NCBI GenBank assembly: GCA_017539905.1
Contig: JAFYBZ010000022.1
Location: forward strand, 77,191 to 141,190
From: Clostridia bacterium
GTDB lineage: Bacteria; Bacillota; Clostridia; TANB77; UBA1234
DNA: 64,000 nt
Reading direction: 5' to 3'
Part shown: piece by piece, positions 256-62,588 of the stretch
How positions within the stretch are numbered: the stretch's first letter is position 1
Layout of the letters: the number at the start of each line of letters is the position of its first letter
The notes under the pieces: model-generated
Told to the model about the DNA's origin: nothing
Seen by the model: only the letters and a program-made list of their open reading frames with translations
Database searches by the model: none
Position numbers and translations under genes: made by a program

Positions 256-3263
<3,008 letters not shown>

Positions 3264-4516: not shown

Positions 4517-4659
4517 GCAACTGGGGGACGGTTCTCAAGTTGCATCATGCAACAGGGGGACAGGGCTTAAGCAACTAGGGGTGTCCCAAAGTTGCACTGT
4601 GCAACTTGAGAACCGTCCCCTAGTTGCACTGTGCAACTTGAGAACCGTCCCCTAGTTGC
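4517..4659. repeat. REP-like array, about 5 units (forward A, B-like, one collapsed unit, then two inverted A units)
   Basis: gcaactgggggacggttctcaagttgca ... tgcaacttgagaaccgtcccctagttgc twice. The two halves are inverted relative to each other. Confidence 0.9.
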
Positions 4660-5280: not shown

Positions 5281-5471
5281 CTATATTTTTATCGTTTTTC
5301 GTAACTAAAAAATAATATAATTGTAATATTTGTAACAATTCACAAAAAGCTTGATATAAAGCCATTTGTGGGTTGTTTTTATTTTGCTCAAATTATGTGC
5401 ACTCGACAAATAATATCCTTGGTTTAAAATATATATGTATGATTTTAACTTTATTAAAGGAGGAAATTTTA

Positions 5472-8400
5472 ATGCAATCTTATAATTACTATGGCTCAAA
5501 CACAAGAAGTAGAAGGGGATATAAGCTTCTTGTTATGAGTTTGATTAGCATACTAATTTTATTGAGTTTTTCATGTGCATATGGTGCTGATCTTAAACAA
5601 CTTAAGGCTAATGGAACTATTAAAGTTTATACGGATTCATCTAAAACTACAGCGATTCCGTATGATACTCGTACTTCTTTTAGCACTAGTTCATCAAATC
5701 CTACTGTTATATCTGGAGATGCATCATATACGTATGATACATTTGCTCATAGACCATATGTTGAGATTCCTGGTTTAACAGAGGATGTCGACTATACCGT
5801 AGCATATAGTGGAGATATAAATGCTACAGTTGAGTATGGTGAAAAATTTGAGGACAATGTTTATATTTCAGGCTCTGAAGAACACCACTATGGAGCTTCA
5901 TATGTTATTGTTCGACCATTAAAAGAACATACTGGATATGCCGTTATCCCTTATGGTATCGAAAAATTAAATTTAGGGGATTATTCAAATCCTAATCCAA
6001 ATATAACATACACATTGTCAGGCTCTAAAATTTATGATGGAACAATTACTCATCCAGTAATTGAAGAATCATCGTATGATAATGGAGGAGCGCAACCAAT
6101 TGATTTGAAATGGAAAACAACATTTGCGAGAGCTCAAAGTTCAGTTGATTTATTTGATATTGGTGCTTACTACGTTCTTATCAATGGTTATTTAGATGGC
6201 AACAATGTTGTAGTATATTCAGATACTAACTATTCTGGATATATGTTGAAGTTAGTTTATGTTTATCCAGCTCCAATGACTTGTACATGGCAAACTGCTG
6301 GACAAGAATTCACATATAACGGAGAAGAACAATATATTACTCCAACTTTAACAGGTGTTGGACAAGAATCTATTCTTTATAAACAAGGTAATACTTCAAA
6401 TCTAAATCACCCTGAATCAATTGATGTTGGAGAATATGATATATCTGTTACTCCATTAATAGTTGATTATAGTGCTGTTACTGATGCTGAATTATTAGCA
6501 GCATATAACAATCTTACAAATGCTGCATTATTAAATAATTATGTATTAGTTGAAAATAATAATTATACAACTTACATGAATTCAGCAGACTTAGATGATT
6601 ATACAACAGTTAATGCATATCTTTCTGCACATGCTTCAGATTTAATGGTTGCTCAATTCGAATCTAACTATAGTATCGTTGGTGCACCTCTTACAGTTAC
6701 AGCTAACGATGTTACAGTAGATAAAGGCGATCCACTTCCAGCACTTGATTTCACAATCACAGGCGAAGTAGGAAATGAAAAAGCTACTAAATCTGGTACT
6801 GCATCAACAACATATGATACAAATACTGCTGGTACTTTCCCTAATGCTATTACAGTATCAAATGCCAATGTAGCTGATACAGGTACAAATGGATTTAAGA
6901 AATCAAACTATAGAATTAGTTTAGTTAATGGTACTCTTACTGTTAATGAAACAACTGTACCTTTAACAATTACAGCTGCTAATAAAGAAAAATATTATGG
7001 CGAACCAGATCCAGAGCTAACTGCTACAACAAATCCTTCAGTTACTCCAGGCGGTGCTCTAACAAGAGAATCTGGTGAGGATGTTGGAGAATATACAATT
7101 CTTCAAGGCACATATGGAACAGAAGCTGCGCCTGCTTATGATCCATCTGCTTATAGTCCAATTACATATGTTCCAGGTACATTAACAATTAAGAAGACAA
7201 GTGTTGAACCAGATCCTGATCCAGGCGATTACCCAGATCAAAAGGTTAGAGTCGAAGTAGAAGTTTCTGGTGACTATACTTATGATGGTCAACCACATAA
7301 GCCACATCCAACAGTTAAATTGGTAGATGAAACAGGTGCTACTATTAAAACACTTGTAGAAGATACTGATTATACACTTTCTTGGGAAGATTATATTAAT
7401 GCTGGTAAACCAGGAGATACAAATCCTCCTACAGTTATAATTACAGGTAAAGGAAACTTTGCTGAAACTCAAGAAGTAGAATATACAATTAAACCAAGAC
7501 CACTTACAGTTACAGCTGATGATATCAATAAAGTTGTTGGTGATGCACTTCCTGCAGAAGCAGAACGTACAATCACAACATCAGGTGAAGTTGCTGGCGA
7601 GACACCTACATTTAGTAATGCTCCAACAATTAGCACAGCTCCAGATCCATTAACTACAGCTACAACTTATCCAATTGAAGTAAGTGAAGCTATCTTAAGC
7701 CCAGTTGCTGATGGTGGATTCATTCCTTCAAACTATAATATTACATATGTAAATGGTACACTTACAGTTACTGAAGCTCCAGCTGTTAAGACTCCACTAT
7801 ATGTAAGATGGAGCGACCAAGATACATTCCAATATGATACATTCCCACACGTAAGAGTTGGTGCTGTATACACAGGTGTATCTGGAGAAACAGTTGATTT
7901 TGAATTAATAGGATGGCAAACAGACGTAGGAAACTATGTTGCTACTATTAGAATAAAAGGAATTAAAGGCGGTCGTGCAAGTTTAGAGTATTATGATACA
8001 ACAACAGTTGAAAATGATTTAGAAAGACCATTTAAGATTGTTGCTTTACCAGTAAGCGGAGACAAGCCTACAGAAGAACCACATGATTCAGGAGATCCAA
8101 TTATCCCTTCTGGAGATCCAATTGAATCAGGAGATCCATATACAACTCCATCTGGGGAACCATATCAACCACAAGACTATACAGTTAGAATTGAAGTTGT
8201 ATGGCCAGACACAGATTACGTTTATTCAGGAGATAATAAAGAACCAGTTCCTGAAAAAGTAGAAATTGTTGTTATTGGAACTGATAACAAAGAAGTTGAA
8301 AGAAAACCACTTCCAAGTGGAGATTATAAGATTGAATATAAAGATAATAAGGATGCAAAAGAAAGTGGAGATGAGAATCCACCAACAGCTACATTAGTAC

Positions 8401-11400
8401 CAGCAAGTGATAATATCACAGGCGAGATTCCATTTGTATTCCCAATCAAACCAAGACCACTTGTTGTTACACCTGATGATCAAACAGGTACAGCTGGTGA
8501 CGTTAAACCAGAAGGCGAAGATTTAACATATAAGACATCTGGAGAAGTTGCAGGAGAAACTCCTACATTCGAAGGATATCCTGAAGTTGATGGTCCTGAC
8601 ATTTTGCAATCTGGAGAATATCCAATTGTAGCTGAAGGACACATGACACCAAAGGAAAGCGGAGATTTCAAACCTTCTAACTATGACATTACTTATGAAG
8701 AAGGTACATTAACAGTTACTGAACCAGCAGCAAAGAAACCACTATATGTTAGATGGAGTGATCAAGATACATTCCAATATGATACATTCCCTCATATAAG
8801 AGTCGGTGTTGTATATACAGGCGTATCTGGCGAGACAGTTGATTTCGAATTAACTGGATGGCAAACAGACGTAGGAGAATACAGAGCACAAATTAGTGTT
8901 AATGGCATTATCGGTGGCGACATTGATGATTATGATTTAAGAACAATCGAAGAAGATTTAATTAGACCATTTAGAATTATTGCTTTACCAGTAAGCGGAG
9001 ACAAGCCTACAGAAGAGCCACATGATTCAGGAGATCCAATTATTCCTTCTGGAGATCCAATTGAATCAGGAGATCCATACATAACTCCATCTGGAGAACC
9101 ATATCAACCACAAGACTACAAAGTTAGAATTGAAGTTGTATGGCCAGACACAGATTACATATATTCTGGAGACTTTAAAGAACCAGTTCCAGAAAAAGTA
9201 GAAATTGTTGTTATCGGACCTGATAACAAAGAAGTTGAAAGAAAACCACTTCCAAGTGGAGATTATAAGATTGAATACAAAGATAATAAGGATGCAAAAG
9301 GAAGCGGAGATGAAAATCCACCAACAGCAACATTAGTACCAAACAGCGATAACATCACAGGTGAGATTCCATTCGTATTCCCAATCGCACCAAGACCACT
9401 TGTTGTTACACCTGATGATCAAACAGGTACAGCTGGTGACGTTAAACCAGAAGGTGAAGATTTAACATATAAGACATCTGGAGAAGTTGCAGGAGAAACT
9501 CCTACATTCGAAGGATATCCTGAAGTTGATGGTCCTGATATTTTACAATCTGGAGAATATCCAATTGTAGCTGAAGGACACATGACACCAAAGGAAAGCG
9601 GAGATTTCAAACCTTCTAACTATGACATTACTTTTGAAGAAGGCACATTGACAGTTTCTGAGCCAGCAGGCTTAGACAAGATATACGTTAAATGGAGTGA
9701 TCAAGACACATTCCAATATGATGGACAACCACATATTAGAATCGGTATCGTTTATACAGATGTAGATGGCGAGACAGTTGATTACACATTAACAGGATGG
9801 AAAGTTGATGCAGGCGAAGGCTACATTGCAACAATTACCATTAATGGAATTAATGGTGGACGCGGAAGCTTAGATAATTACGATACAACAGGATTACAAT
9901 TAACAAATACATTTAAGATTAAAGCACTTCCATTACCAACACCAGAGCCAACAGAAGAACCACAAGATTCTGGTGATCCAATGCCATCAGGAGAAACAAA
10001 TCCATCAGGCGATCCAGTTCAACCACAAGATTACACAGTAGTAATCGAGGTTAAATGGCCAAGTGGAGATTACATCTATTCAGGCGATGAAAAGATGCCA
10101 GTTCCTGACAGTGTTGAAATAGTTATTTATGATCCATCAGGTGATGAGGTAAGTAGAGAACCACTTCCATCTGGAGATTATACTATAGTTTATGAAAATA
10201 ATATTGATGCTGCTGAGAGCGGTGATCCTGTTCATCCAACAGCTAGGATAGTTCCATCAGGTGATAATATTACAGGCGAGATTGGATATCCATTTACAAT
10301 TAAGCCAAGACCACTTGATGTTGAATGGAATGAAAAAGATACATTCCAATATGATGGAAAAGAACATATTAGAATAGGTAAGATAGTTTCTGATATGCCT
10401 GGAGTTGAAGTTGAGTATACGCTTGAAGAAATGCAAATCGAAGCAAATACTAGCGGAGAGCATTATACAGCTACACTTACATATGATGGAATTAAAGGTG
10501 GTAAAGCATCTAACTTCTATTTACCAGATGATTTAGAGCTTGAAAAACCATTTACAATTGTTCCATTACCAATTAGTGAAATAAAACCTACAGAAAAACC
10601 AATCAATCCAACTGATCCATTACCAGATGATGATCAACCAGATGATTATACTGTAGAAGTTGAGATAACATGGCCAGATCCTGAAATTATTTACACAGGT
10701 AAGCCTGTTGAACCAGTACCAGACAAAGTTGAATTAATAATCAAGAATCCATCAGGAGACGTGATTAATAGAAGAGTTTTAGATCCAGATGAGTATACAT
10801 TAGATTATGAAAACAATGTTCCAGTTGGAGAAAGTACAGATCCAAATCCACCTACAATAATTATTATTGGCGATGGAAAGAACATTACAGGACAAGTTCC
10901 TCATCCATTTACAATTACTCCAGCTCCACTTACAGTTAAAGCTGATAACAAGACTAAGACAGTAGGTAGAGAAAATCCAACACTTACATATACTGTTACA
11001 GGTGCTGTAAATGGCGAAGTTCCAGCATTTGATGGAACTCCAACAACTACATGTACAAAAGAATCTAAGAAAGGTACATATCCAATAGTTGTTGACGGAG
11101 AATTAGTTGCAAAAGTTGAAGGTACATTTGATCCTGCTAACTACAACATTACATATGTTGATGGCATTCTTACAGTTAAATCTTCAGGTGGCGGAACATC
11201 TACACCAGTACCAAAGGATATCGATGTAAGCATATTCTTAAGCAATGGTAAGAGAGAAGATAAAGGTAACAACAACTACTACTTATTAGGAGAAGAAGTT
11301 GTTTACTACGTAGATTACGAAAACTTAAAAGAAGCATTCTCAGATACATATAAACTTACACTTGAGTTACCACTTCCATTTGAAGCTGTTGAATTAGATG

Positions 11401-12290
11401 GAGGTAAAGTAAGTGGAAAGACAATCACATGGACAATTCCTGGTGGTATGAAAGTTGATGAAACTGGAAGAAAGACTGTTAAAGTTAAATTCACAGCATT
11501 TAGCAGTGGAAATAAGAAAGGCTGGGAAGACATTTATCCAGTAGATAGAATCTATGTAGGTTCTAAAGAATATGATGAATGTACAGTTCATAACATCATT
11601 TATACATTAGATAATGATATTGATAATAAGCACATTATTTACATGTATGGTGATGAAGAAAAACCAACATTTAGACCAGACGATATAATCAATAGAGCAG
11701 AAGGTGCACTTGTATTGACTCGTATATTTGAAATCAATACTTCAAACGTAGCAATCGTTGGAGATGAATTTACAGATATAGGAGATACATACTTAAAAGC
11801 ACAACAAGCAATTGTTAAAGCTTCTCAATTAGGATTAATTGCTGGTTACGAAGACGGTTCATACAGACCACTTCAAAAGATGACAAGAGCAGAATTCATG
11901 TCAATTATTTCTAGATTTGTTGAATATAAGTCAACACAAGAAGGAATAAAGGGTATGGATATCAAAGAAATCCAAAAAGACTCTAAGCTTTATAAGAAAG
12001 CTGGACACTGGGCAGATAAATACATCTTGTTACTAGCTAGATTAAACATGGCTCCAGAAGATATTGATACAATGGAAAGCCTAAATAGAAAGATAACAAG
12101 AGCAGAAGTTGCACAACTTTGCAACATGTACTTATTAAGAGCTCCAGTTAAAGATGATGGAACAATCGTGTTACCATTCAATGATGTTGATAGCTCACAT
12201 AAATTATGGGGCGATATCATCGAGGCAACAAGACAATCACATAACGACTTCAGACTAACAGAAGACGCTTACGAAATTTGGAATCACTAA
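5472..12290 (+). CDS. giant cell-surface protein: signal peptide, many Ig-like/MBG-type repeats with SGDP-rich linkers, three C-terminal SLH domains
   Basis: ATG at 5472 follows AAGGAGG; the track start at 5373 has no RBS. Signal peptide LLVMSLISILILLSFSCAYG. Recurrent ...SNYNITYVNGTLTV (MBG-like) and YxYDGxxHxP modules. C-terminal SLH motifs (GYEDGSYRPLQKMTRAEF, ITRAEVAQL). Confidence 0.85.
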   Translation: MQSYNYYGSNTRSRRGYKLLVMSLISILILLSFSCAYGADLKQLKANGTIKVYTDSSKTTAIPYDTRTSFSTSSSNPTVISGDASYTYDTFAHRPYVEIPGLTEDVDYTVAYSGDINATVEYGEKFEDNVYISGSEEHHYGASYVIVRPLKEHTGYAVIPYGIEKLNLGDYSNPNPNITYTLSGSKIYDGTITHPVIEESSYDNGGAQPIDLKWKTTFARAQSSVDLFDIGAYYVLINGYLDGNNVVVYSDTNYSGYMLKLVYVYPAPMTCTWQTAGQEFTYNGEEQYITPTLTGVGQESILYKQGNTSNLNHPESIDVGEYDISVTPLIVDYSAVTDAELLAAYNNLTNAALLNNYVLVENNNYTTYMNSADLDDYTTVNAYLSAHASDLMVAQFESNYSIVGAPLTVTANDVTVDKGDPLPALDFTITGEVGNEKATKSGTASTTYDTNTAGTFPNAITVSNANVADTGTNGFKKSNYRISLVNGTLTVNETTVPLTITAANKEKYYGEPDPELTATTNPSVTPGGALTRESGEDVGEYTILQGTYGTEAAPAYDPSAYSPITYVPGTLTIKKTSVEPDPDPGDYPDQKVRVEVEVSGDYTYDGQPHKPHPTVKLVDETGATIKTLVEDTDYTLSWEDYINAGKPGDTNPPTVIITGKGNFAETQEVEYTIKPRPLTVTADDINKVVGDALPAEAERTITTSGEVAGETPTFSNAPTISTAPDPLTTATTYPIEVSEAILSPVADGGFIPSNYNITYVNGTLTVTEAPAVKTPLYVRWSDQDTFQYDTFPHVRVGAVYTGVSGETVDFELIGWQTDVGNYVATIRIKGIKGGRASLEYYDTTTVENDLERPFKIVALPVSGDKPTEEPHDSGDPIIPSGDPIESGDPYTTPSGEPYQPQDYTVRIEVVWPDTDYVYSGDNKEPVPEKVEIVVIGTDNKEVERKPLPSGDYKIEYKDNKDAKESGDENPPTATLVPASDNITGEIPFVFPIKPRPLVVTPDDQTGTAGDVKPEGEDLTYKTSGEVAGETPTFEGYPEVDGPDILQSGEYPIVAEGHMTPKESGDFKPSNYDITYEEGTLTVTEPAAKKPLYVRWSDQDTFQYDTFPHIRVGVVYTGVSGETVDFELTGWQTDVGEYRAQISVNGIIGGDIDDYDLRTIEEDLIRPFRIIALPVSGDKPTEEPHDSGDPIIPSGDPIESGDPYITPSGEPYQPQDYKVRIEVVWPDTDYIYSGDFKEPVPEKVEIVVIGPDNKEVERKPLPSGDYKIEYKDNKDAKGSGDENPPTATLVPNSDNITGEIPFVFPIAPRPLVVTPDDQTGTAGDVKPEGEDLTYKTSGEVAGETPTFEGYPEVDGPDILQSGEYPIVAEGHMTPKESGDFKPSNYDITFEEGTLTVSEPAGLDKIYVKWSDQDTFQYDGQPHIRIGIVYTDVDGETVDYTLTGWKVDAGEGYIATITINGINGGRGSLDNYDTTGLQLTNTFKIKALPLPTPEPTEEPQDSGDPMPSGETNPSGDPVQPQDYTVVIEVKWPSGDYIYSGDEKMPVPDSVEIVIYDPSGDEVSREPLPSGDYTIVYENNIDAAESGDPVHPTARIVPSGDNITGEIGYPFTIKPRPLDVEWNEKDTFQYDGKEHIRIGKIVSDMPGVEVEYTLEEMQIEANTSGEHYTATLTYDGIKGGKASNFYLPDDLELEKPFTIVPLPISEIKPTEKPINPTDPLPDDDQPDDYTVEVEITWPDPEIIYTGKPVEPVPDKVELIIKNPSGDVINRRVLDPDEYTLDYENNVPVGESTDPNPPTIIIIGDGKNITGQVPHPFTITPAPLTVKADNKTKTVGRENPTLTYTVTGAVNGEVPAFDGTPTTTCTKESKKGTYPIVVDGELVAKVEGTFDPANYNITYVDGILTVKSSGGGTSTPVPKDIDVSIFLSNGKREDKGNNNYYLLGEEVVYYVDYENLKEAFSDTYKLTLELPLPFEAVELDGGKVSGKTITWTIPGGMKVDETGRKTVKVKFTAFSSGNKKGWEDIYPVDRIYVGSKEYDECTVHNIIYTLDNDIDNKHIIYMYGDEEKPTFRPDDIINRAEGALVLTRIFEINTSNVAIVGDEFTDIGDTYLKAQQAIVKASQLGLIAGYEDGSYRPLQKMTRAEFMSIISRFVEYKSTQEGIKGMDIKEIQKDSKLYKKAGHWADKYILLLARLNMAPEDIDTMESLNRKITRAEVAQLCNMYLLRAPVKDDGTIVLPFNDVDSSHKLWGDIIEATRQSHNDFRLTEDAYEIWNH
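7794..9690 (+). repeat. intragenic tandem repeat, two near-identical units of ~945 and ~939 bp; diverged 3rd and 4th copies continue to about 10930
   Basis: PLYVRWSDQDTFQYDTFPH... recurs at 7794 and 8739, then diverged at 9680 and ~10310. Antisense track ORFs 8480..8671 and 9419..9610 differ at 1 of 63 aa. Confidence 0.9.
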
Positions 12291-12329: not shown

Positions 12330-12426
12330 GCAACGCAACTAGGGGACGGTTCTCAAGCTGCACGACGCAACTAGGGGACGGTTCTCAAGTTGCACGACGC
12401 AACTAGGGGACAGGTCTAAAGTAGTA
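12330..12426 (+). repeat. REP-like array, 3 forward units (A 12335-12362, A 12367-12394, B 12399-12426), 32-bp period
   Basis: gcaactaggggacggttctcaag(c/t)tgca, cgac spacer, ... gcaactaggggacaggtctaaagtagta. Confidence 0.92.
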
Positions 12427-12451
12427 GAGCAAACATCATTTACTACTTTTC

Positions 12452-12480
12452 TTGACTAATTCCGATTTTAATCTTAATAT
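12452..12480 (+). promoter_or_regulatory. sigma-A-like promoter for the transposase gene
   Basis: TTGACT, 17 nt, TAATAT. Confidence 0.5.
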
Positions 12481-12502
12481 ATGCTTATAATTAATATTTT
12501 GG

Positions 12503-12544
12503 GGGCAAAAGTATTCGTATGACAGGATACTTTTGCCCTTTTTT
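12503..12544 (+). terminator. terminator-like hairpin in the transposase 5' leader, abutting the RBS
   Basis: Perfect 12-bp stem gggcaaaagtat/atacttttgccc, 12-nt loop, T6 run, then AGGAGG (12545-12550) and ATG at 12556. Confidence 0.65.
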
Positions 12545-12555
12545 AGGAGGTAAAA

Positions 12556-13323
12556 ATGCCAAGAAAAGCTAGAAATCCAAAGCTGTTAACTGCCTATCAT
12601 ATTATGGTTCAAGGTCTTAACAAAGAAAAAATTTTTGATAATGACAAAGACAAAATGAAGTATTTATACATATTGAAAGAAAAGCTTGATGAATATAAAG
12701 TAAAACTGATTTCATATTGTATTATGAATAATCATGCTCATTTGCTAATTTATAATGAGGATTTTTATGGAATTAGTAAATTGATGCATAAGGTAAACGC
12801 CATTTTTTCAATGTATTATAATCTAAAAAATAATCGAGTTGGTTTTGTATTTAGAGATCGATTTTTAAGTCAAGAAATTTATTCGTATGATCAATTAATT
12901 GTTTGTATTCAATACATTCACAATAACCCCGTAAAAGCTAAAATAGTAAAAACACCTGATAAATACGCTTTTTCAAGTTATATTGATTTAAAATATGAAA
13001 AGAGCAAATTCATAGACATTGATTTGATAAGATTTTTGTTTGATAAAAAATGTTTTGTGGATATTTGGAAGTTTAACAATTGTAATGATTTTAAATTGAT
13101 TGAGCCAAATATATATGATAGAGAGCTATTCTATTCTGAAATTGTTAATAAGATTAATCCAAAGAGAGTAATGGATGATGATGCAACTATTAAGAGATTT
13201 TTGATATGTTGTAAAGAAAAATATTTTGTACCAAATAATGAAATAGCAGAAGCTTTGAATGTTAATAAAAGTACTATAACTAGATGGATTAAGAAATTTG
13301 GCCTTGAGAAATTGGGTGAATAA
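12556..13323 (+). CDS. HUH/Y1 tyrosine transposase, REP-associated (RAYT-like, IS200/IS605 superfamily) with C-terminal HTH-like tail
   Basis: HUH motif in CIMNNHAHLLI. Catalytic Tyr motif IQYIHNNPVKAKIV. C-terminal NNEIAEALNVNKSTITRWIKKFG resembles an HTH. Flanked by REP-like arrays. Confidence 0.8.
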   Translation: MPRKARNPKLLTAYHIMVQGLNKEKIFDNDKDKMKYLYILKEKLDEYKVKLISYCIMNNHAHLLIYNEDFYGISKLMHKVNAIFSMYYNLKNNRVGFVFRDRFLSQEIYSYDQLIVCIQYIHNNPVKAKIVKTPDKYAFSSYIDLKYEKSKFIDIDLIRFLFDKKCFVDIWKFNNCNDFKLIEPNIYDRELFYSEIVNKINPKRVMDDDATIKRFLICCKEKYFVPNNEIAEALNVNKSTITRWIKKFGLEKLGE

Positions 13324-13336
13324 AGGCTTTAAGCTG

Positions 13337-13422
13337 TTGAGACGTGTCCCTTTGTTGCGCTGTGCAACTTGAGAACCGTCCCCTGGTTGCAGCGTGCAAC
13401 TTGAGAACCGTCCCCAAGTTGC
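13337..13422 (-). repeat. REP-like array, 3 inverted units (B' 13337-13358, A' 13363-13390, A' 13395-13422)
   Basis: ttgagacgtgtccctttgttgc, gctg, tgcaacttgagaaccgtcccctggttgc, agcg, tgcaacttgagaaccgtccccaagttgc. Confidence 0.92.
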
Positions 13423-13529
13423 GGGTTTGTCTATTTTTAGCGATTTTCTGTATATTTTTGTCAAATTTTGTGTTATAATTCAGTTTCCGAAGGATTTTCC
13501 AATGTTTTTTTAGAAAGGAGGCAATAATT

Positions 13530-15089: not shown

Positions 15090-15212
15090 GCAACGGAGGG
15101 ACGGTTCTCAAGTTGCAGTGTGCAACTTGAGAACCGTCCCCCGGTTGCGCCGTGCAACTTGAGAACCGTCCCCCGGTTGCAACGTGCAACTTGAGAACCG
15201 TCCCCCAGTTGC
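15090..15212. repeat. REP-like array, 4 units (1 forward, 3 inverted; 32-bp period)
   Basis: gcaacggagggacggttctcaagttgca, gtg, then tgcaacttgagaaccgtccccc(g/a)gttgc three times. Confidence 0.92.
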
Positions 15213-20785: not shown

Positions 20786-21299
20786 ATGAACAAATCACTT
20801 ATTAAAAAGATACTATATATTTTAATAATAATTGCCTGGATGGGCGTAATATTTGCTTTCTCTAGCTTAAATGGTGAAGGCTCGGATGATCAAAGTAAAG
20901 GATTGGCTAGAGCCGTGGTTGAGACTACGGTGCGGGACACTTCACAAGCTCGGCATTATTAATGAGATGCCAGAGCAAGAAGAATTGGATGCCGTAGTCG
21001 ATACTATTAATACTCCAATTAGAAAATGTGCGCATGCGGCGGAGTATTTTGTTTTAACATTTTTAGTGATGTTTGCATTAAGAGATAAAGACACATGGAA
21101 CGTATCTATTGGTAAAGCAATTATTATTTCACTTGCGGTTTGCTTTATTTATAGCCTGACTGATGAATTTCACCAGACTTACGTGCCCGCAAGGAGTGGG
21201 CAATTTAGCGATTGTTTAAATGATACTCTAGGTGGGTGTGTGGCGATTGCGGTATTTGTGATTGGTTATAATATAAAAAGGATGATAAATAAAAATTGA
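20786..21299 (+). pseudogene. VanZ-family membrane protein, frameshifted around 20925-20955
   Basis: ATG 20786 ORF (MNKSLIKKILYILIIIAWMGVIFAFSS...) stops at about 20958. It continues in another frame (track ORF 20871..21299: ...PIRKCAHAAEYFVLTFL...DEFHQ). The intact paralog at 36510..37010 shows the same layout. Confidence 0.65.
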
Positions 21300-21302
21300 A
21301 TT

Positions 21303-21338
21303 GAGGGGGCGGTTCTAATATTTTTAGAACCGTCCCAA
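21303..21338 (+). terminator. hairpin built from an inverted pair of the repeat core
   Basis: gggggcggttctaa tattt ttagaaccgtccc. Confidence 0.55.
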
Positions 21339-41808: not shown

Positions 41809-41954
41809 TGCAACTGAGGGACGGTTCTCAAGTTGCACGGCGCAACAGGGGGACGGTTCTCAAGTTGCATTGTGCAACTTGAGAACCGTCCCCTGGTTGC
41901 GTAGACCTGTCCCTTGGTTGCTTTGTGCAACTTGAGAACCGTCCCCTAGTTGCA
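41809..41954. repeat. REP-like composite array, 5 units (A A | A' B' A'); the last unit overlaps the uvrB stop
   Basis: About 95 percent identical (hand alignment, about 7 mismatches in 146) to 50244..50389. Confidence 0.92.
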
Positions 41955-43907
41955 CATCTCTTCAAGTTCTTTGATTTTGTCACGTAGCTCGGCAGCTTCT
42001 TCGAATTCCATCTTTTGTGCGTGCGCTAGCATTTGGTCGGTTAGTTTATTAATGATGTCTTTGATATCTTCTTCTGATTTGATTTCAATCTTTTCTCCTG
42101 AGTCATCGTCTTCGTAGTAAGTAGCTTTGATATCATCAAATATGTCTTTCTTAATTGTTTGAGGTATGATGCCATGTTCTTTGTTATATGCTTCTTGGAT
42201 TTTTCTACGTCTGTTAGTTTCTTTTATTGCTTTTTCCATAGAGTCAGTTAATTCATCGGCATACATTATTACTTTTCCTTCAGAGTTACGTGCAGCACGT
42301 CCGATTGTTTGGATTAATGAACGCTCACTTCTTAAGAAACCTTCTTTATCAGCATCTAGTATTGCAACTAAAGCTACTTCTGGTAAATCTAATCCTTCTC
42401 GAAGTAGGTTAATACCAACTAAGACATCATATTTTCCTTGTCTTAATTCTTTTAATATCTTAAGTCTTTCTAGCGTGTCAACATCTGAGTGCATGTAAGT
42501 AACTTTGATAGATAATTCTTTTAAGTAAGCTGTTAAATCTTCGGCCATCTTTTTAGTTAGAGTAGTTACTAACACACGATATCCTTTTTCGACTGTTGTA
42601 TGTATTTGCTCGATTAAATCGTCAATTTGATTATCGACTGGCTTAACTTCAATCTTAGGATCAAGTAGTCCAGTAGGACGAATGATTTGCTCAACTGTAT
42701 TTGTAGAATGCTCTTTTTCGTAATCCGCAGGAGTAGCAGATACAAATACAACTTGATTTAATCTTTCTTCGAATTCCTCAAATTTCAAAGGACGATTATC
42801 ATAGGCTGATGGAAGTCTAAATCCATAATCTACCAAAGTTGTCTTACGAGCCTTATCACCATTATACATTGCTCTAACTTGAGGAACTGTAGCGTGCGAC
42901 TCATCAATCATCAACAAGAAATCTTTTGGGAAGTAATCCATTAAAGTGTATGGTGCAGAGCCAGGAGCACGACCAGAGATATGACGAGAGTAGTTTTCAA
43001 TTCCTTGGCAAAAGCCTGTTTCTTTTATCATTTCTATATCAAAATTTGTACGTTGCTCAATACGTTGAGCTTCAATTAGTTTGTTATTGTCTTGGAAGTA
43101 TTTAATTCTTTCTTCTAATTCTTCTTCGATAGTTGTAATAGCTCTTTCAAGCTTTGCCTTAGAAGTAGCATAGTGCGAATTAGGGAAGATAAGACAATGA
43201 GTACGAGCAGCAATCTTGTGACCTGTTAAAGGATCTATCTCAGTAATCTTATCTATTTCATCTCCAAAGAATTCAACTCTTAATGCAGATTCATCTGTAT
43301 TTGATGGATAGATTTCTACAGTGTCGCCTTTTGCTCTGAACTTACCACGTCTAAAGTCGATATCATTTCTTTCGTATTGTCTATCTATCAATTGACGTAG
43401 CAAAACATCTCTTTCAATTTGCATTCCAGGTCTTAAAGACAATGTCAGATTTGAATAATCATCAGGGTCGCCTAAACCATAAATGCATGAAACAGAAGCA
43501 ACTATAATTACATCTTTACGCTCAAATAAAGAAGCAGTAGCACTATGACGAAGTTTATCGATTTCTTCATTTACTGCAGAATCTTTTTCTATATAAGTAT
43601 CAGTTTGAGGCATGTATGCTTCTGGCTGATAGTAATCATAGTAAGAAACGAAGTACTCAACTGCATTCTCAGGGAAGAACTCTTTAAACTCTGAATATAG
43701 TTGTCCTGCCAAAGTCTTGTTATGAGCAAGAACAAGAGTAGGTTTATTAACTTGTTGTATTACGTTTGCCATAGTGAATGTTTTACCTGAACCTGTAACA
43801 CCAAGAAGTGTTTGAAACTTCTCGCCAAGCTTGATGCCATCTACTAATGATTTGATAGCTTCTGGCTGATCACCAGTTGGCTCGTAATTTGAGTGCAATT
43901 TAAACAT
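41946..43907 (-). CDS. uvrB: excinuclease ABC subunit B
   Basis: [31 protein letters not shown]-terminal UVR motif [17 protein letters not shown]. The final codons TGC AAC TAG are repeat-derived. Confidence 0.95.
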
Positions 43908-50243: not shown

Positions 50244-50389
50244 TGCAACTAGGGGACGGTTCTCAAGTTGCACGGCGCAACAGGGGGACGGTTCTCAAGT
50301 TGCATCGTGCAACTTGAGAACCGTCCCCTAGTTGCGTAGACCTGTCCCTTGGTTGCGTCGTGCAACTTGAGAACCGTCCCCCAGTTGCA
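50244..50389. repeat. REP-like composite array, 5 units (A A | A' B' A'), plus a partial unit at 50226-50243
   Basis: Near-identical copy of 41809..41954. Confidence 0.92.
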
Positions 50390-50435
50390 TAAAAGCAATA
50401 AGTAGTATACTATTAATGTAGATGGGAGGATTTGT

Positions 50436-52870: not shown

Positions 52871-52975
52871 AAAGGGGACAGGTCTAAGATGTAGACCTGT
52901 CCCTTTGTTGCGCTGTGCAACTTGAGAACCGTCCCCTGGTTGCGTCGTGCAACTTGAGAACCGTCCCCTAGTTGC
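52871..52975. repeat. REP-like array, 4 units (B | B' A' A'). The B/B' hairpin (52875-52903) acts as terminator of the peptidase gene. The last unit overlaps the stop of the minus-strand ATPase gene.
   Basis: The right arm closely matches the right arm of the transposase element (13337..13422). Confidence 0.92.
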
Positions 52976-60149: not shown

Positions 60150-60263
60150 TGCAACTAGGGGACGGTTCTCAAGTTGCACGATGCAACTTAAGAACCGTCC
60201 CTTTGTTGCGTAGACCTGTCCCTCGGTTGCAGTGTGCAACTTGAGAACCGTCCCCTAGTTGCA
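60150..60263. repeat. REP-like array, 4 units (A | A' B' A')
   Basis: tgcaactaggggacggttctcaagttgca, cga, tgcaacttaagaaccgtccctttgttgc, gtagacctgtccctcggttgc, agtg, tgcaacttgagaaccgtcccctagttgca. Confidence 0.92.
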
Positions 60264-60356: not shown

Positions 60357-62588
60357 ATGGTTTTAGATGTGAATAAAGAATTAGAAGATTATAAAAAATC
60401 TCCTAATGAATACCTTAAGAATTTAATTATTGAAATTATAAATGGTGATACAACACGTTTATTCTACTTAAAAACTGGAAAAGTAAAATTCAACGCTGAT
60501 AAAGAATGTATTGACCAACTAATAAATTGCATTGAACAATCAAATGACTCTGATGTACGTAAATCAAGATTGGCAATAATGGGCTTTTTTGGGTTAATTA
60601 ATTCTAAAGACAGAATAGAATGGTTAAAAGAGAATTCAAAATCAGATAAAGCTGTATTTGTTTTTGCAAGAAAAATACCATTTGCAGATTTGTGTAGCGC
60701 AATTAACGATGAATCATTAAAAGCTGTTGCAATTTCTGAACTTTCAAGCCTCACTTTAAAAAATTTTGATTATTTAATAGCAACTACGAAAGATCCGTAT
60801 TTTAAAGAAAAAATATATTATAGATGTGCTGCTAATAAACGTTCACCTAAAAAAGTATATTTATATCAAATTAAAAGATATGAGAGAATTAAAGAAGAAA
60901 TAGCAAAATTATCTTCTGAAGAAGAAAAAGTAAATTACATTGTTAATCTTAAGCCTGAAGAAGAGACGATAGAAGAGTATAACGACATTAATTTAATTAA
61001 AAAATCCTTACTTGAACAAATTAAGGAACCTCAAAATCGTGATGCCGTAATTTCAAGTATGTCTTCACTTACTAAGCCACCTTTTGACTTGTACAAAAAG
61101 TATATTAGAGAAATGATAATAGAGTATCTTTCAACTAATGAAGATTTAACAAGAGAAATGCTTGAAAAAATTGATATTACATTTAATTCATTTCATTTAT
61201 TTAGTGAAGATTTGTCTAATGTTGTAGCTATACTTGGAGAAAGCGCTGGTGAAAAAGGATTAGCAAATGGTGATTGTAATCATATAGATAAAATCATTAG
61301 ACTTGATAAAAAGCTAGACATATCAAGCGTTTTAAATACTCTTTTACATGAATTAGGACATGGGTTGTCTTTCCAATCTGACCATCTTAATACAACAAAT
61401 TCAAAATTTCATAACACAATTTTGGGCACAGAAATAGAAGAAGGAGTTGTTGAATCTTTTACTCAAAATGTATGGAAATCTTATTTTACAAATCATGATT
61501 TATCAATTGATGGCAAAAAGATTGATCCTTATATGTATATGTCAGCAGCTTATAGAAGATATGTCACAATAATTAAAACAATAATGTCAAAATTTTCAAT
61601 TAATGGAGAAGACAAAGAAATTTTCAAAGATTATTTACTTGGAGATAAAGAACGAGCATATAAATCTCTTGATGTAACAAAAATACTTAAAATATGTAAA
61701 AACGAATTAGATTTTTCTCCAGAGTTACTTTCACATTTATATCAAAATTGCAATCCTCAATTTGTTGAGGAATCGTATATGGACAATAATATATTATTAA
61801 ATTCATTAAAGAAATTAAAAAACTATCCAAAAGACAAATTACCAAAATATTTTGCTTTATTTGTTAAAATCGCTAAGTATATAGAAAAAACTTCTACACT
61901 TGATATTGATACTGCATCTGATTTTGATGAGATATTTGATAAAAGAAAACTCTATGATATTTCTCCTGATGAAATTGATTTTGCTTTTACAATGCAAGGA
62001 GTAATCTCTGAGTCATCGACAGAAAAATATACTTTTGATAAAGATAAAGAACTGTCAGATGATGAAAGGAAACAGAATAGTCCTAGGATTTTACAAAATC
62101 TATTAGCAATTGCAATTAATACAAATGATCCATTGTTTAAAAGAGTTAAACCTCATCTTTTTGAAAAATATATAAACTTAGTTAAGGAAAAAAATATTGA
62201 TTCTATTGAAGATTTACAAAAATATATTGAATTGAATCAATACTTAACAAGTAAAAGTGATGATATTTCTTCTTTATATTTTAAGCCAGATGGTTTAGAT
62301 GAAATACAAAGTTTAACTCTAGATAGAATTAAAGAAGCTCTATTAATTCCTGATTTTAAGAAGAATTTAGATGGAAAGTATTCTTTTAAGGATTTAGAAA
62401 ATAATGAAGCTCTTTTAAAGATTTTTAAAGATAATGGTGTCATAATAAATGATAATGATATTATTCAAGATGTTTGTGAAGGATTAGAAAAATCAAAAAG
62501 TACCATTGATGACGTTGAAACAACATCAATAAGTTTTGAACGTTCAATGGTAAAACGTGATAAGGAAGGAGCTGAAAGAGATGGATGA
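60357..62588 (+). CDS. hypothetical large protein with an HExxH zincin-like motif (743 aa)
   Basis: LNTLLHELGHGLSF at about aa 330. Otherwise unrecognised. Confidence 0.55.
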   Translation: MVLDVNKELEDYKKSPNEYLKNLIIEIINGDTTRLFYLKTGKVKFNADKECIDQLINCIEQSNDSDVRKSRLAIMGFFGLINSKDRIEWLKENSKSDKAVFVFARKIPFADLCSAINDESLKAVAISELSSLTLKNFDYLIATTKDPYFKEKIYYRCAANKRSPKKVYLYQIKRYERIKEEIAKLSSEEEKVNYIVNLKPEEETIEEYNDINLIKKSLLEQIKEPQNRDAVISSMSSLTKPPFDLYKKYIREMIIEYLSTNEDLTREMLEKIDITFNSFHLFSEDLSNVVAILGESAGEKGLANGDCNHIDKIIRLDKKLDISSVLNTLLHELGHGLSFQSDHLNTTNSKFHNTILGTEIEEGVVESFTQNVWKSYFTNHDLSIDGKKIDPYMYMSAAYRRYVTIIKTIMSKFSINGEDKEIFKDYLLGDKERAYKSLDVTKILKICKNELDFSPELLSHLYQNCNPQFVEESYMDNNILLNSLKKLKNYPKDKLPKYFALFVKIAKYIEKTSTLDIDTASDFDEIFDKRKLYDISPDEIDFAFTMQGVISESSTEKYTFDKDKELSDDERKQNSPRILQNLLAIAINTNDPLFKRVKPHLFEKYINLVKEKNIDSIEDLQKYIELNQYLTSKSDDISSLYFKPDGLDEIQSLTLDRIKEALLIPDFKKNLDGKYSFKDLENNEALLKIFKDNGVIINDNDIIQDVCEGLEKSKSTIDDVETTSISFERSMVKRDKEGAERDG

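Follow-up and report, generated by a model that had tools for sequence, protein, structure and literature searches.

A 64-kb stretch of DNA from a Clostridia bacterium (contig JAFYBZ010000022.1, 64,000 nt, G+C content 31.6%; referred to throughout as the window) probably carries a unit of the REPtron/TIRtron type, that is, a gene for a TIRYT-type Y1 transposase (here called the Y1 gene, and its product the Y1 enzyme) bracketed by its own cognate stem-loop repeats, which have in turn spread as gene-less copies. Repetitive extragenic palindromes (REPs) and the REP-associated tyrosine transposases (RAYTs) are the standard example of a transposase that has become “domesticated” and is accompanied by vertically inherited non-autonomous repeats, and have been studied almost only in Proteobacteria; the window locus and its relatives would represent a parallel REP/RAYT-type system in Clostridia, in a variant form. 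A first-pass annotation, made from the letters of the sequence, had already proposed a REPtron-like unit in a low-G+C Firmicute at this place, and the proposal has held up, in that cognate repeats are found in the same orientation at homologous genes elsewhere.

Repeats and homologous genes across the family

The association between gene and repeat, together with its orientation, recurs across many unrelated genomes, at about 50 loci. A set of 80 metagenome loci containing Y1 homologs was assembled, and orientations were counted over the 43 independent loci in which both flanks were present. Hairpin units carrying GGGAC were in forward orientation in 34 cases and reverse in 3 when they lay upstream of the homolog, and reverse in 26 cases and forward in 5 when they lay downstream, so that the orientation rule is kept by 60 of the 68 flanking units; inside the gene bodies of these loci (33 kb) no such unit was found. 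The upstream unit lies about 60–190 nt ahead of the ATG and the downstream unit mostly 1–20 nt past the stop codon, and the arrangement in the window is alike, with the downstream array beginning 14 nt past the stop codon of the Y1 gene. Even homologs with 42–45% identity elsewhere have inverted hairpin arrays on both sides, with the same core and other arms.

Across these genomes the core is invariant, whereas the arms are complementary within a genome and different between genomes. Units with the exact core number 167 in 49 sources, and in 137 of them the arms pair by Watson-Crick rules over 5 bp or more. The mean best stem per source is 7.40 bp, as against 3.45 ± 0.21 bp (maximum 4.10, 200 permutations) in a control where arms were paired across sources, and there are at least 30 different stem sequences among 40 sources. 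A logo over 40 sources has G-GGGACGGTTC-T (12 nt) invariant, the conserved part being the loop GGGGACGGTTCT, and no GTAG conserved at the hairpin foot. The units at loci L013 (TTCAGAAAA-GGGGACGGTTCTC-TTTTCTGAA) and L016 (GGAATT-GGGGACGGTTCT-TTTTTCC) may serve to illustrate the pattern. The distance between the arms (i.e. the loop length) ranges from 11 to 19 nt among genomes, and at loci that lack the exact core the flanking hairpins still hold GGGGAC(G/A)nnnn in the loop. Units with GCAAC arms occur also in Clostridia metagenome-assembled genomes of about 50% G+C.

It is also the case that repeat copies far outnumber gene copies in the genomes examined. In CROMO_A_104, one of the Clostridia metagenome-assembled genomes with about 50% G+C, units are present on eight contigs, on one of which a homolog lies beside them in REPtron orientation. 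In the window, the repeat comes in two forms, unit A (GCAACTAGGGGACGGTTCTCAAGTTGC), of which there are 25 copies at no more than three mismatches against 0.00 expected from 100 shuffles, and unit B (GCAACnnGGGGACAGGTCTA), of which there are about eight further copies, as compared with the single Y1 copy that tblastn finds there. These copies (about 0.5 per kb over the window) fall into nine clusters including both flanks of the Y1 gene, all of them intergenic and mostly downstream of genes. Of the A units, 11 are on the plus strand and 14 on the minus, with nearly all of the window's genes on the plus strand. The first-pass annotation had noted the same units scattered without a transposase, and in this it was right.

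The two flanks of the Y1 gene together make up an inverted repeat of 87 nt with 87% complementarity, and this, with the coordinates in Table 1, agrees with the order originally given for them (A, A, B upstream and B', A', A' downstream), subject to the amendment that the gene-proximal downstream unit is a variant of B, having GGGACACGTCTC instead of GGGACAGGTCTA. The variant starts TTGAGACG; the sequence GTAGACC, with which inverted B units had been said to begin, is confined, in the window, to those dispersed B- copies whose starts are at about 41901, 50336, 52891 and 60210. The likeness that had been seen there to the GTAG of proteobacterial REPs must be put down to coincidence, as no GTAG is conserved across the family. 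A CRISPR-like array was also considered for these repeats, and is ruled out by the 32-nt period, linkers of only 5 nt and the presence of units in both orientations.

Because a search of the whole window with all Rfam families at the gathering threshold gave no match, the repeats correspond to no described RNA family. Full-text literature searches returned no account of the loop motif GGGACGGTTC, only unrelated papers; the first-pass annotation had likewise not recognised the repeat family as a described one. Nor, apart from a passing mention by Bertels et al. (2017; PMC5581495), who report Clostridia Group 1 RAYTs with flanking 16-mers that are only modestly repeated, did they return any REP/RAYT-type system in Firmicutes, Clostridia included.

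The Y1 enzyme and its affinities

Motifs, profiles and fold agree in supporting the initial assignment of the coding sequence to the Y1/RAYT type on the strength of its HUH and Tyr motifs. The HUH motif NNHAHLLI supplies H60 and H62, and the Tyr motif IQYIHNNPVKAKIV supplies Y120. Pfam Y1_Tnp (PF01797) matches residues 13–124 with E = 1.8e-12 (47.9 bits against a cut-off of 23), and the best NCBIfam model is REP_Tyr_transpos (NF047646), at 61.1 bits with its equivalog cut-off of 80 not reached; the NCBIfam IS200 model gives 21 bits (cut-off 55). REP_Tyr_transpos is the top NCBIfam model for 30 of 30 aligned homologs as well. When an AlphaFold2 model of the protein (mean pLDDT 87.5) was submitted to Foldseek, the top PDB match was 4er8_A, E. 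coli TnpA_REP in complex with a REP hairpin (TM 0.70, E 7.9e-6), and next came the transposases of IS608, ISDra2 and IS200 (4er8, 2vjv, 2xma and 2f4f all at probability 1.00). A PDB sequence search with the Y1 protein alone found no match; a sequence profile built from the family does reach 4er8, at E 8e-4 and with a low score of 22 bits.

An alignment of 30 homologs shows no variation at H60, H62, Y120, Y137 or S140, and at least 90% conservation at S141 (YxxSSY). The enzyme is intact, and selection on it is purifying: relative to two 98.6%-identical variants the coding sequence has 7–8 synonymous and 2 nonsynonymous codon changes, i.e. a ratio of nonsynonymous to synonymous substitution rates (dN/dS) of about 0.06, and it is preceded by a ribosome-binding site, AGGAGG, at 12545–12550. 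The last 110 residues are far less conserved than the catalytic domain. The first-pass annotation had them end in a helix-turn-helix (HTH), for which the case is weak but consistent: the predicted structure has a three-helix unit there (209–222, 227–234 and 238–247), as the annotation would lead one to expect, and the HTH Pfam scores are below their cut-offs (HTH_23, 22.4 bits over residues 228–249 with a cut-off of 24.6; HTH_28, 19.1 bits over residues 228–250).

The family is large, comprising 2,262 clusters (50% identity) at E ≤ 1e-30, and its members are scarce in plasmid records (12 of 72,556) and in phage records (1 of 50,697). The closest homologs (P0002 and P0003, at 58–59% identity) both come from the same NCBI assembly.

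As to where such an enzyme belongs, its shared features suggest that it is TIRYT-like, or in other terms like TnpA_Y1 subclass 2.1, and not a canonical RAYT. TIRYTs and TIRtrons are described by Di Nocera et al. (2013; PMC3733652) as RAYT-like genes with inverted flanks containing GGGGWSAS, some of which form moderately abundant repeat families, while Quentin et al. (2018; PMC6006769) place TIRYTs in subclass 2.1, whose members have a serine motif and carry at their C-terminus a Bac_DnaA_C, HTH_23 or HTH_28 domain. In common with these, the window protein is RAYT-like and exceeds canonical RAYTs in length, has a serine motif conserved behind the catalytic Tyr and a weakly supported C-terminal HTH resembling HTH_23/HTH_28, and its gene is flanked by inverted GGGGWSAS-type repeats, which in TIRYTs too can be moderately abundant families occurring in dimers or clusters. 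The match is exact for the core of unit B (GGGGACAG, at 12406–12413) and one base off for that of unit A (GGGGACGG); the downstream B-like unit carries GGGACACG with A, not G, before it. There are also differences. The TIRYT examples named in the portions of PMC3733652 and PMC6006769 referred to here are from Proteobacteria and Acidobacteria, with no Firmicute described, and what appears to be new in the present case is that the flanks consist of separate stem-loops in arrays, the 12-nt loop being invariant and the stems covarying, and that the units are densely dispersed near the gene.

Comparison with the canonical REPtron (E. coli TnpA_REP/YafM, 4ER8, and the REPIN-RAYT systems of Pseudomonas; PMC3116915, PMC2817692, PMC3479197) likewise gives a mixed picture. 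The two have in common a Y1 gene (in the present case apparently single-copy) with inverted cognate palindromes, intergenic repeats that occur as singlets, inverted pairs (REPIN-like) and mosaic clusters (BIME-like), and the fold of the catalytic domain, for which this is the best structural match. In contrast, canonical RAYTs and their REPs are characterised by a GT[AG]G foot and specific residues that read it (PMC6006769); the present family has no GTAG or GT[AG]G foot, and what it conserves is neither foot nor stem but the loop. Where the E. coli enzyme reads GTAG with W94, Q95, E100, H101 and R104, the window protein has F99, R100, S105, Q106 and a variable position, with the caveat that the profile alignment to 4er8 (FRDRFLSQEI opposite WQPRFWEHAI) scores 22 bits, so that individual positions are approximate. 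The extra C-terminal HTH, the score under the NCBIfam cut-off and the Clostridia host are further points of difference.

With the IS200/IS605 elements (IS608, ISDra2, IS200) the enzyme shares its HUH/Tyr core and fold, and subterminal hairpins are the likely DNA signals in both. Unlike them, the window element appears not to be multi-copy, has ends consisting of inverted arrays and not of left and right hairpins on one strand, lacks a tnpB partner, carries a C-terminal HTH and matches the IS200 model weakly. IS200 also has a hairpin resembling a terminator ahead of its transposase start, and one is seen at the window Y1 gene too, directly 5' of the ribosome-binding site. Folded as RNA, this leader hairpin reaches -26.7 kcal/mol (z -4.4). 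It resembles an intrinsic terminator or attenuator, and may keep the Y1 enzyme scarce by holding its expression low. Similar leader hairpins are present at some homologous loci of low G+C content (L013, L016, L031, L039, L044 and L069). A leader terminator was considered as a hallmark of the family and rejected, a clear hairpin with a T-run beside the ribosome-binding site being present at only about 7 of 52 loci; the leader fold has z < -2 at 19 of the 52, yet many of these folds are the repeat units themselves.

Recognition, spread and competing explanations

One complete replicon of a relative allows gene and repeat to be counted over a longer distance. This is record NZ_CP154629.1 of Acetoanaerobium noterae DSL2 (2.63 Mb, labelled a plasmid, here treated as chromosome-sized, and almost devoid of annotation), in which tblastn finds a Y1 homolog in one place. 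At least 34 cognate units, of the form AATCAnnA-GGGACGGTTC-TTTTTGATT, are present in this record, and all lie at 341,965–423,169, an 81-kb zone that ends at the Y1 gene. No units were found in the adjoining 40 kb and 119 kb (zone and adjoining DNA together spanning 301884–542306), downstream of the gene, or in five distant 50-kb samples. An even density over the record is thereby ruled out, and since the repeats can be regional and one-sided, the density in the window cannot be extrapolated to a whole genome. At A. noterae locus L108 (20780–20813) an inverted downstream unit encodes the last codons of the Y1 gene itself (…KEPSLMI*).

These counts bear on the first of the alternatives, namely that the roughly 1.1-kb unit is an ordinary autonomous insertion sequence of the IS200/IS605 group that moves whole, with the gene-less clusters as its internal-deletion derivatives, comparable to miniature inverted-repeat transposable elements. 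The clusters at 4517–4659 (A+B+B-A-A-) and 52880–52975 (B+B-A-A-) do have the order of the two gene flanks joined without the gene, and the B- unit in the former has GGGACAC, the variant that also occurs in the unit just downstream of the gene (13339–13358). In addition, Bertels et al. (PMC5581495) call Group 1 RAYTs, including those of Clostridia, among the most IS-like, and a few homologs are on plasmids. However, the exact protein occurs on eight public contigs that either share the window's context (an SLH giant protein upstream and a PLD-domain protein downstream) or are 950–990 nt long and end in A units, and these short contigs break within A units and not at the outer edge of the 1.1-kb unit. 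No set of near-identical copies of the whole 1.1-kb element was found in the window, in the public contigs or in the one complete related replicon. Furthermore, the unit of which the ends are built is also found dispersed by itself, in pairs and in composites, one of which (A+A+A-B-A-) is not derivable by simple internal deletion, the ends of IS200/IS605 elements are one-strand hairpins, not inverted repeats, and no tnpB partner is present here. An ordinary insertion sequence is on this evidence unlikely. In an observation that stands apart from these counts, a scaffold with an identical Y1 gene (L018) is unrelated to the window over its nt 1–550, with a junction at 12482, on the inner side of the upstream array; it was treated as a probable chimera, joined at the repeats, and not used.

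The preferred reading, in which a TIRYT-type gene is accompanied by cognate stem-loops, implies a mode of action that can be sketched from sequence patterns and from the better known relatives. The Y1 enzyme would bind a unit where single-stranded DNA allows it to be extruded as a hairpin, for instance at replication forks, as do IS608 and E. coli TnpA_REP, and would read the invariant loop instead of a GTAG foot. DNA would be cut and rejoined through a 5'-phosphotyrosine at Y120, with the metal held by H60/H62, and such cutting and rejoining would excise, copy or rearrange units, the repeats thereby seeding the intergenic DNA nearby with copies that are gene-less and non-autonomous. The C-terminal HTH, which varies more, might add DNA binding, possibly to the genome-specific arms. 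An invariant loop on a stem that is free to covary is also the arrangement at the origins used by HUH Rep proteins of rolling-circle plasmids, circoviruses and geminiviruses, where the enzyme nicks within the loop. This is an analogy, not homology, as the Rep enzymes initiate replication and belong to a different HUH clade; a cut within the loop of the present units would be no more than a possibility.

As far as folding is concerned, inverted pairs and clusters form long hairpins as DNA, at -44 to -69 kcal/mol (z -9 to -15), and A+/A- pairs, with linkers of 3–5 nt, form 27-bp hairpins; these are inverted doublets that fold as one long hairpin in intergenic DNA, as REPINs do. Structure at the RNA level, also considered, finds no support, given units in both orientations within a block of co-oriented genes and equal numbers of G.T and A.C mismatches.

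A number of points nevertheless weigh against the REPtron/TIRtron reading. The protein scores below the cut-off of the NCBI RAYT model (61 as against 80 bits). Single units fold weakly as DNA, at -4.7 kcal/mol for 12365–12393 and -0.9 for 12333–12361, where the stem has a mismatch. Stem mismatches across units comprise 36 G.T and 37 A.C, with no excess of the former, and it follows that arm complementarity does not discriminate between single-strand hairpins and a symmetric duplex site for a dimer. Repeats in A. noterae are regional and not genome-wide, and relatives whose TGT protein is 90–93% identical (L103–L107), which may or may not carry the Y1 gene, have no units in about 50 kb. It must be remembered, too, that binding, action on single-stranded hairpins, the choice of strand and the site of cleavage are all inferred.

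Several of these points would be accommodated by duplex recognition, in which the HTH domains of a dimer bind the inverted arms and the catalytic domain touches the 12-bp core, so that the apparent covariation of the stems reflects dimer symmetry and co-evolution of HTH and arms, and not base pairing. This would fit the weak folding of single units and the lack of any G.T over A.C bias in the arm mismatches, as well as the fact that catalytic domain and core are both conserved while C-terminal region and arms are both variable; Quentin et al. (PMC6006769) moreover raise the idea that subclass 2.1 proteins target DNA directly through their DnaA-like or HTH domain. It is nonetheless improbable, seeing that the characterised Y1 HUH transposases (IS608, ISDra2, E. 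coli TnpA_REP) all use single-stranded hairpins and the fold here matches theirs, that a distance of 11–19 nt between the arms is awkward for a dimer of fixed spacing and harmless for a hairpin, and that units very often occur as inverted pairs forming 27-bp hairpins.

The remaining alternative, that these are host-serving repeats (terminators, mRNA-stabilising hairpins or sites for nucleoid proteins) kept independently of a Y1 gene that happens to sit in a repeat-rich region, can draw on the intergenic, mostly gene-downstream position of the clusters, on the two units that supply stop codons and on the secondary roles of this kind that REPs have in E. coli (PMC3733652), the lack of an Rfam match being neutral. 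It is nevertheless very hard to credit in view of the dozens of unrelated genomes in which the gene is bracketed in the same orientation-specific way, by units whose core is invariant and whose arms are particular to the genome, the occurrence of units in both orientations relative to transcription, the absence of a G.U-type bias such as RNA structure would give, and the position of all 34 A. noterae units in a zone ending at the gene.

Returning to the reading in terms of a TIRYT-type gene and its own stem-loops, a more specific version can be put forward tentatively, as something that may well prove wrong: that in Clostridia TIRYT/subclass 2.1, the second largest of the Y1 subclasses, has a REP-like hairpin class of its own, in which the loop (G-GGGACGGTTC-T) is both the recognition and the nicking site, and whose spread is mainly local, the last of these being suggested by the one-sided 81-kb zone in A. 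noterae. If recognition and nicking do take place in the loop, the mode of substrate use would be unlike both that of IS608, which uses a hairpin and a guide sequence, and that of the E. coli RAYT, which uses the GTAG foot. The architecture, with a loop constant across genomes and stems specific to each, offers a testable recognition code, and the pairing of enzyme and hairpin a simple model for the reading of DNA by HUH enzymes. It bears also on a published negative, for Quentin et al. (PMC6006769) state that automatic and manual searches found no REP-like sequences near subclass 2.1 genes. On a practical level, the units break short-read assemblies, and many homologs are on contigs of about 1 kb.

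Further features of the window

Table 1 Positions of the Y1 gene, its domains and the repeat clusters in the window.
Feature	Position	Strand	Remarks
Upstream array A+A+B+	12333..12428	+	A 12335-12361, A 12367-12393, B 12399-12425; 32-nt period
Promoter-like TTGACT-17-TAATAT	12452..12480	+	between upstream array and Y1 gene; consensus match only
Leader hairpin	12501..12544	+	16 bp, loop of 8, then TTTTT(T); directly 5' of ribosome-binding site
Y1/HUH enzyme coding sequence	12556..13323	+	255 aa, ATG start; Pfam, NCBIfam, predicted structure, homolog alignment
Y1 enzyme catalytic domain	residues 1-145		H60/H62 at 12733-12741; Y120 at 12913-12915
Y1 enzyme C-terminal HTH (weak support)	residues 209-247 (13180-13296)		variable linker before
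Downstream array B-A-A-	13337..13423	-	B-like 13339-13358, A 13364-13390, A 13396-13422
Cluster A+ B+	3204..3262	+	TGT gene stop codon (3209-3211) inside unit A
Cluster A+ B+ B- A- A-	4517..4659		folds as single long hairpin: -57.5 kcal/mol, z -12.3
Cluster A+ A- A- A-	15090..15212
Degenerate palindrome GGGGGCGGTTCTAATATTTTTAGAACCGTCCCA	21305..21337		two loop motifs without GCAAC arms; after open reading frame 20871..21299
144-nt composite A+ A+ A- B- A-	41810..41953		fold z -15.2
Second 144-nt composite A+ A+ A- B- A-	50245..50388
Cluster truncated B+, then B- A- A-	52880..52975
Cluster A+ A- B- A-	60151..60262		composite minus first unit

Composite multi-unit elements are present at more than one site. 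Those at 41810 and 50245 have the first linker ACGGC in common and near-identical later linkers, and their flanks are unrelated. At the position of the A+B+ cluster at 3204–3262, an assembly that is 99.95% identical (L017, 620–700) has A+A+B+; the 32-nt difference has its breakpoints at GGGGAC motifs, and could represent either gain or loss of a unit or an artefact of assembly. Membership of the repeat family is doubtful for the degenerate palindrome at 21305–21337, which may be an old or different subfamily, or simply a terminator.

Units also contribute to coding sequence, in that the stop codons of the TGT gene (3209–3211) and of the minus-strand open reading frame 41946..43907 lie inside the GCAACTAG of unit A (3204–3211 and 41946–41953, respectively). 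Insertion of the repeat seems to have reshaped host genes at their 3' ends, and the long intergenic hairpins may in addition affect transcription and genome stability. The TGT protein of the window is 82% identical to one labelled “Clostridia bacterium”. In the relatives L103–L107, gene order beyond TGT differs from that in the window, and the L103 contig ends 7 nt after this gene.

An octamer, AAGTAGTA, is found directly after B+ units or cluster ends at 12420–12428, 3256–3263 and 50399–50407, and may be an extension of unit B. For the proteins encoded at 256–2040 and 60357–62585, looked up with a view to extending the sequence past the window, no exact match was found. Upstream of the Y1 locus, the surface protein encoded at 5373–12290 (2,305 aa, with MBG_2 and SLH domains) contains an internal duplication of about 1.15 kb, 7719–8865 and 8667–9803 being 88% identical.

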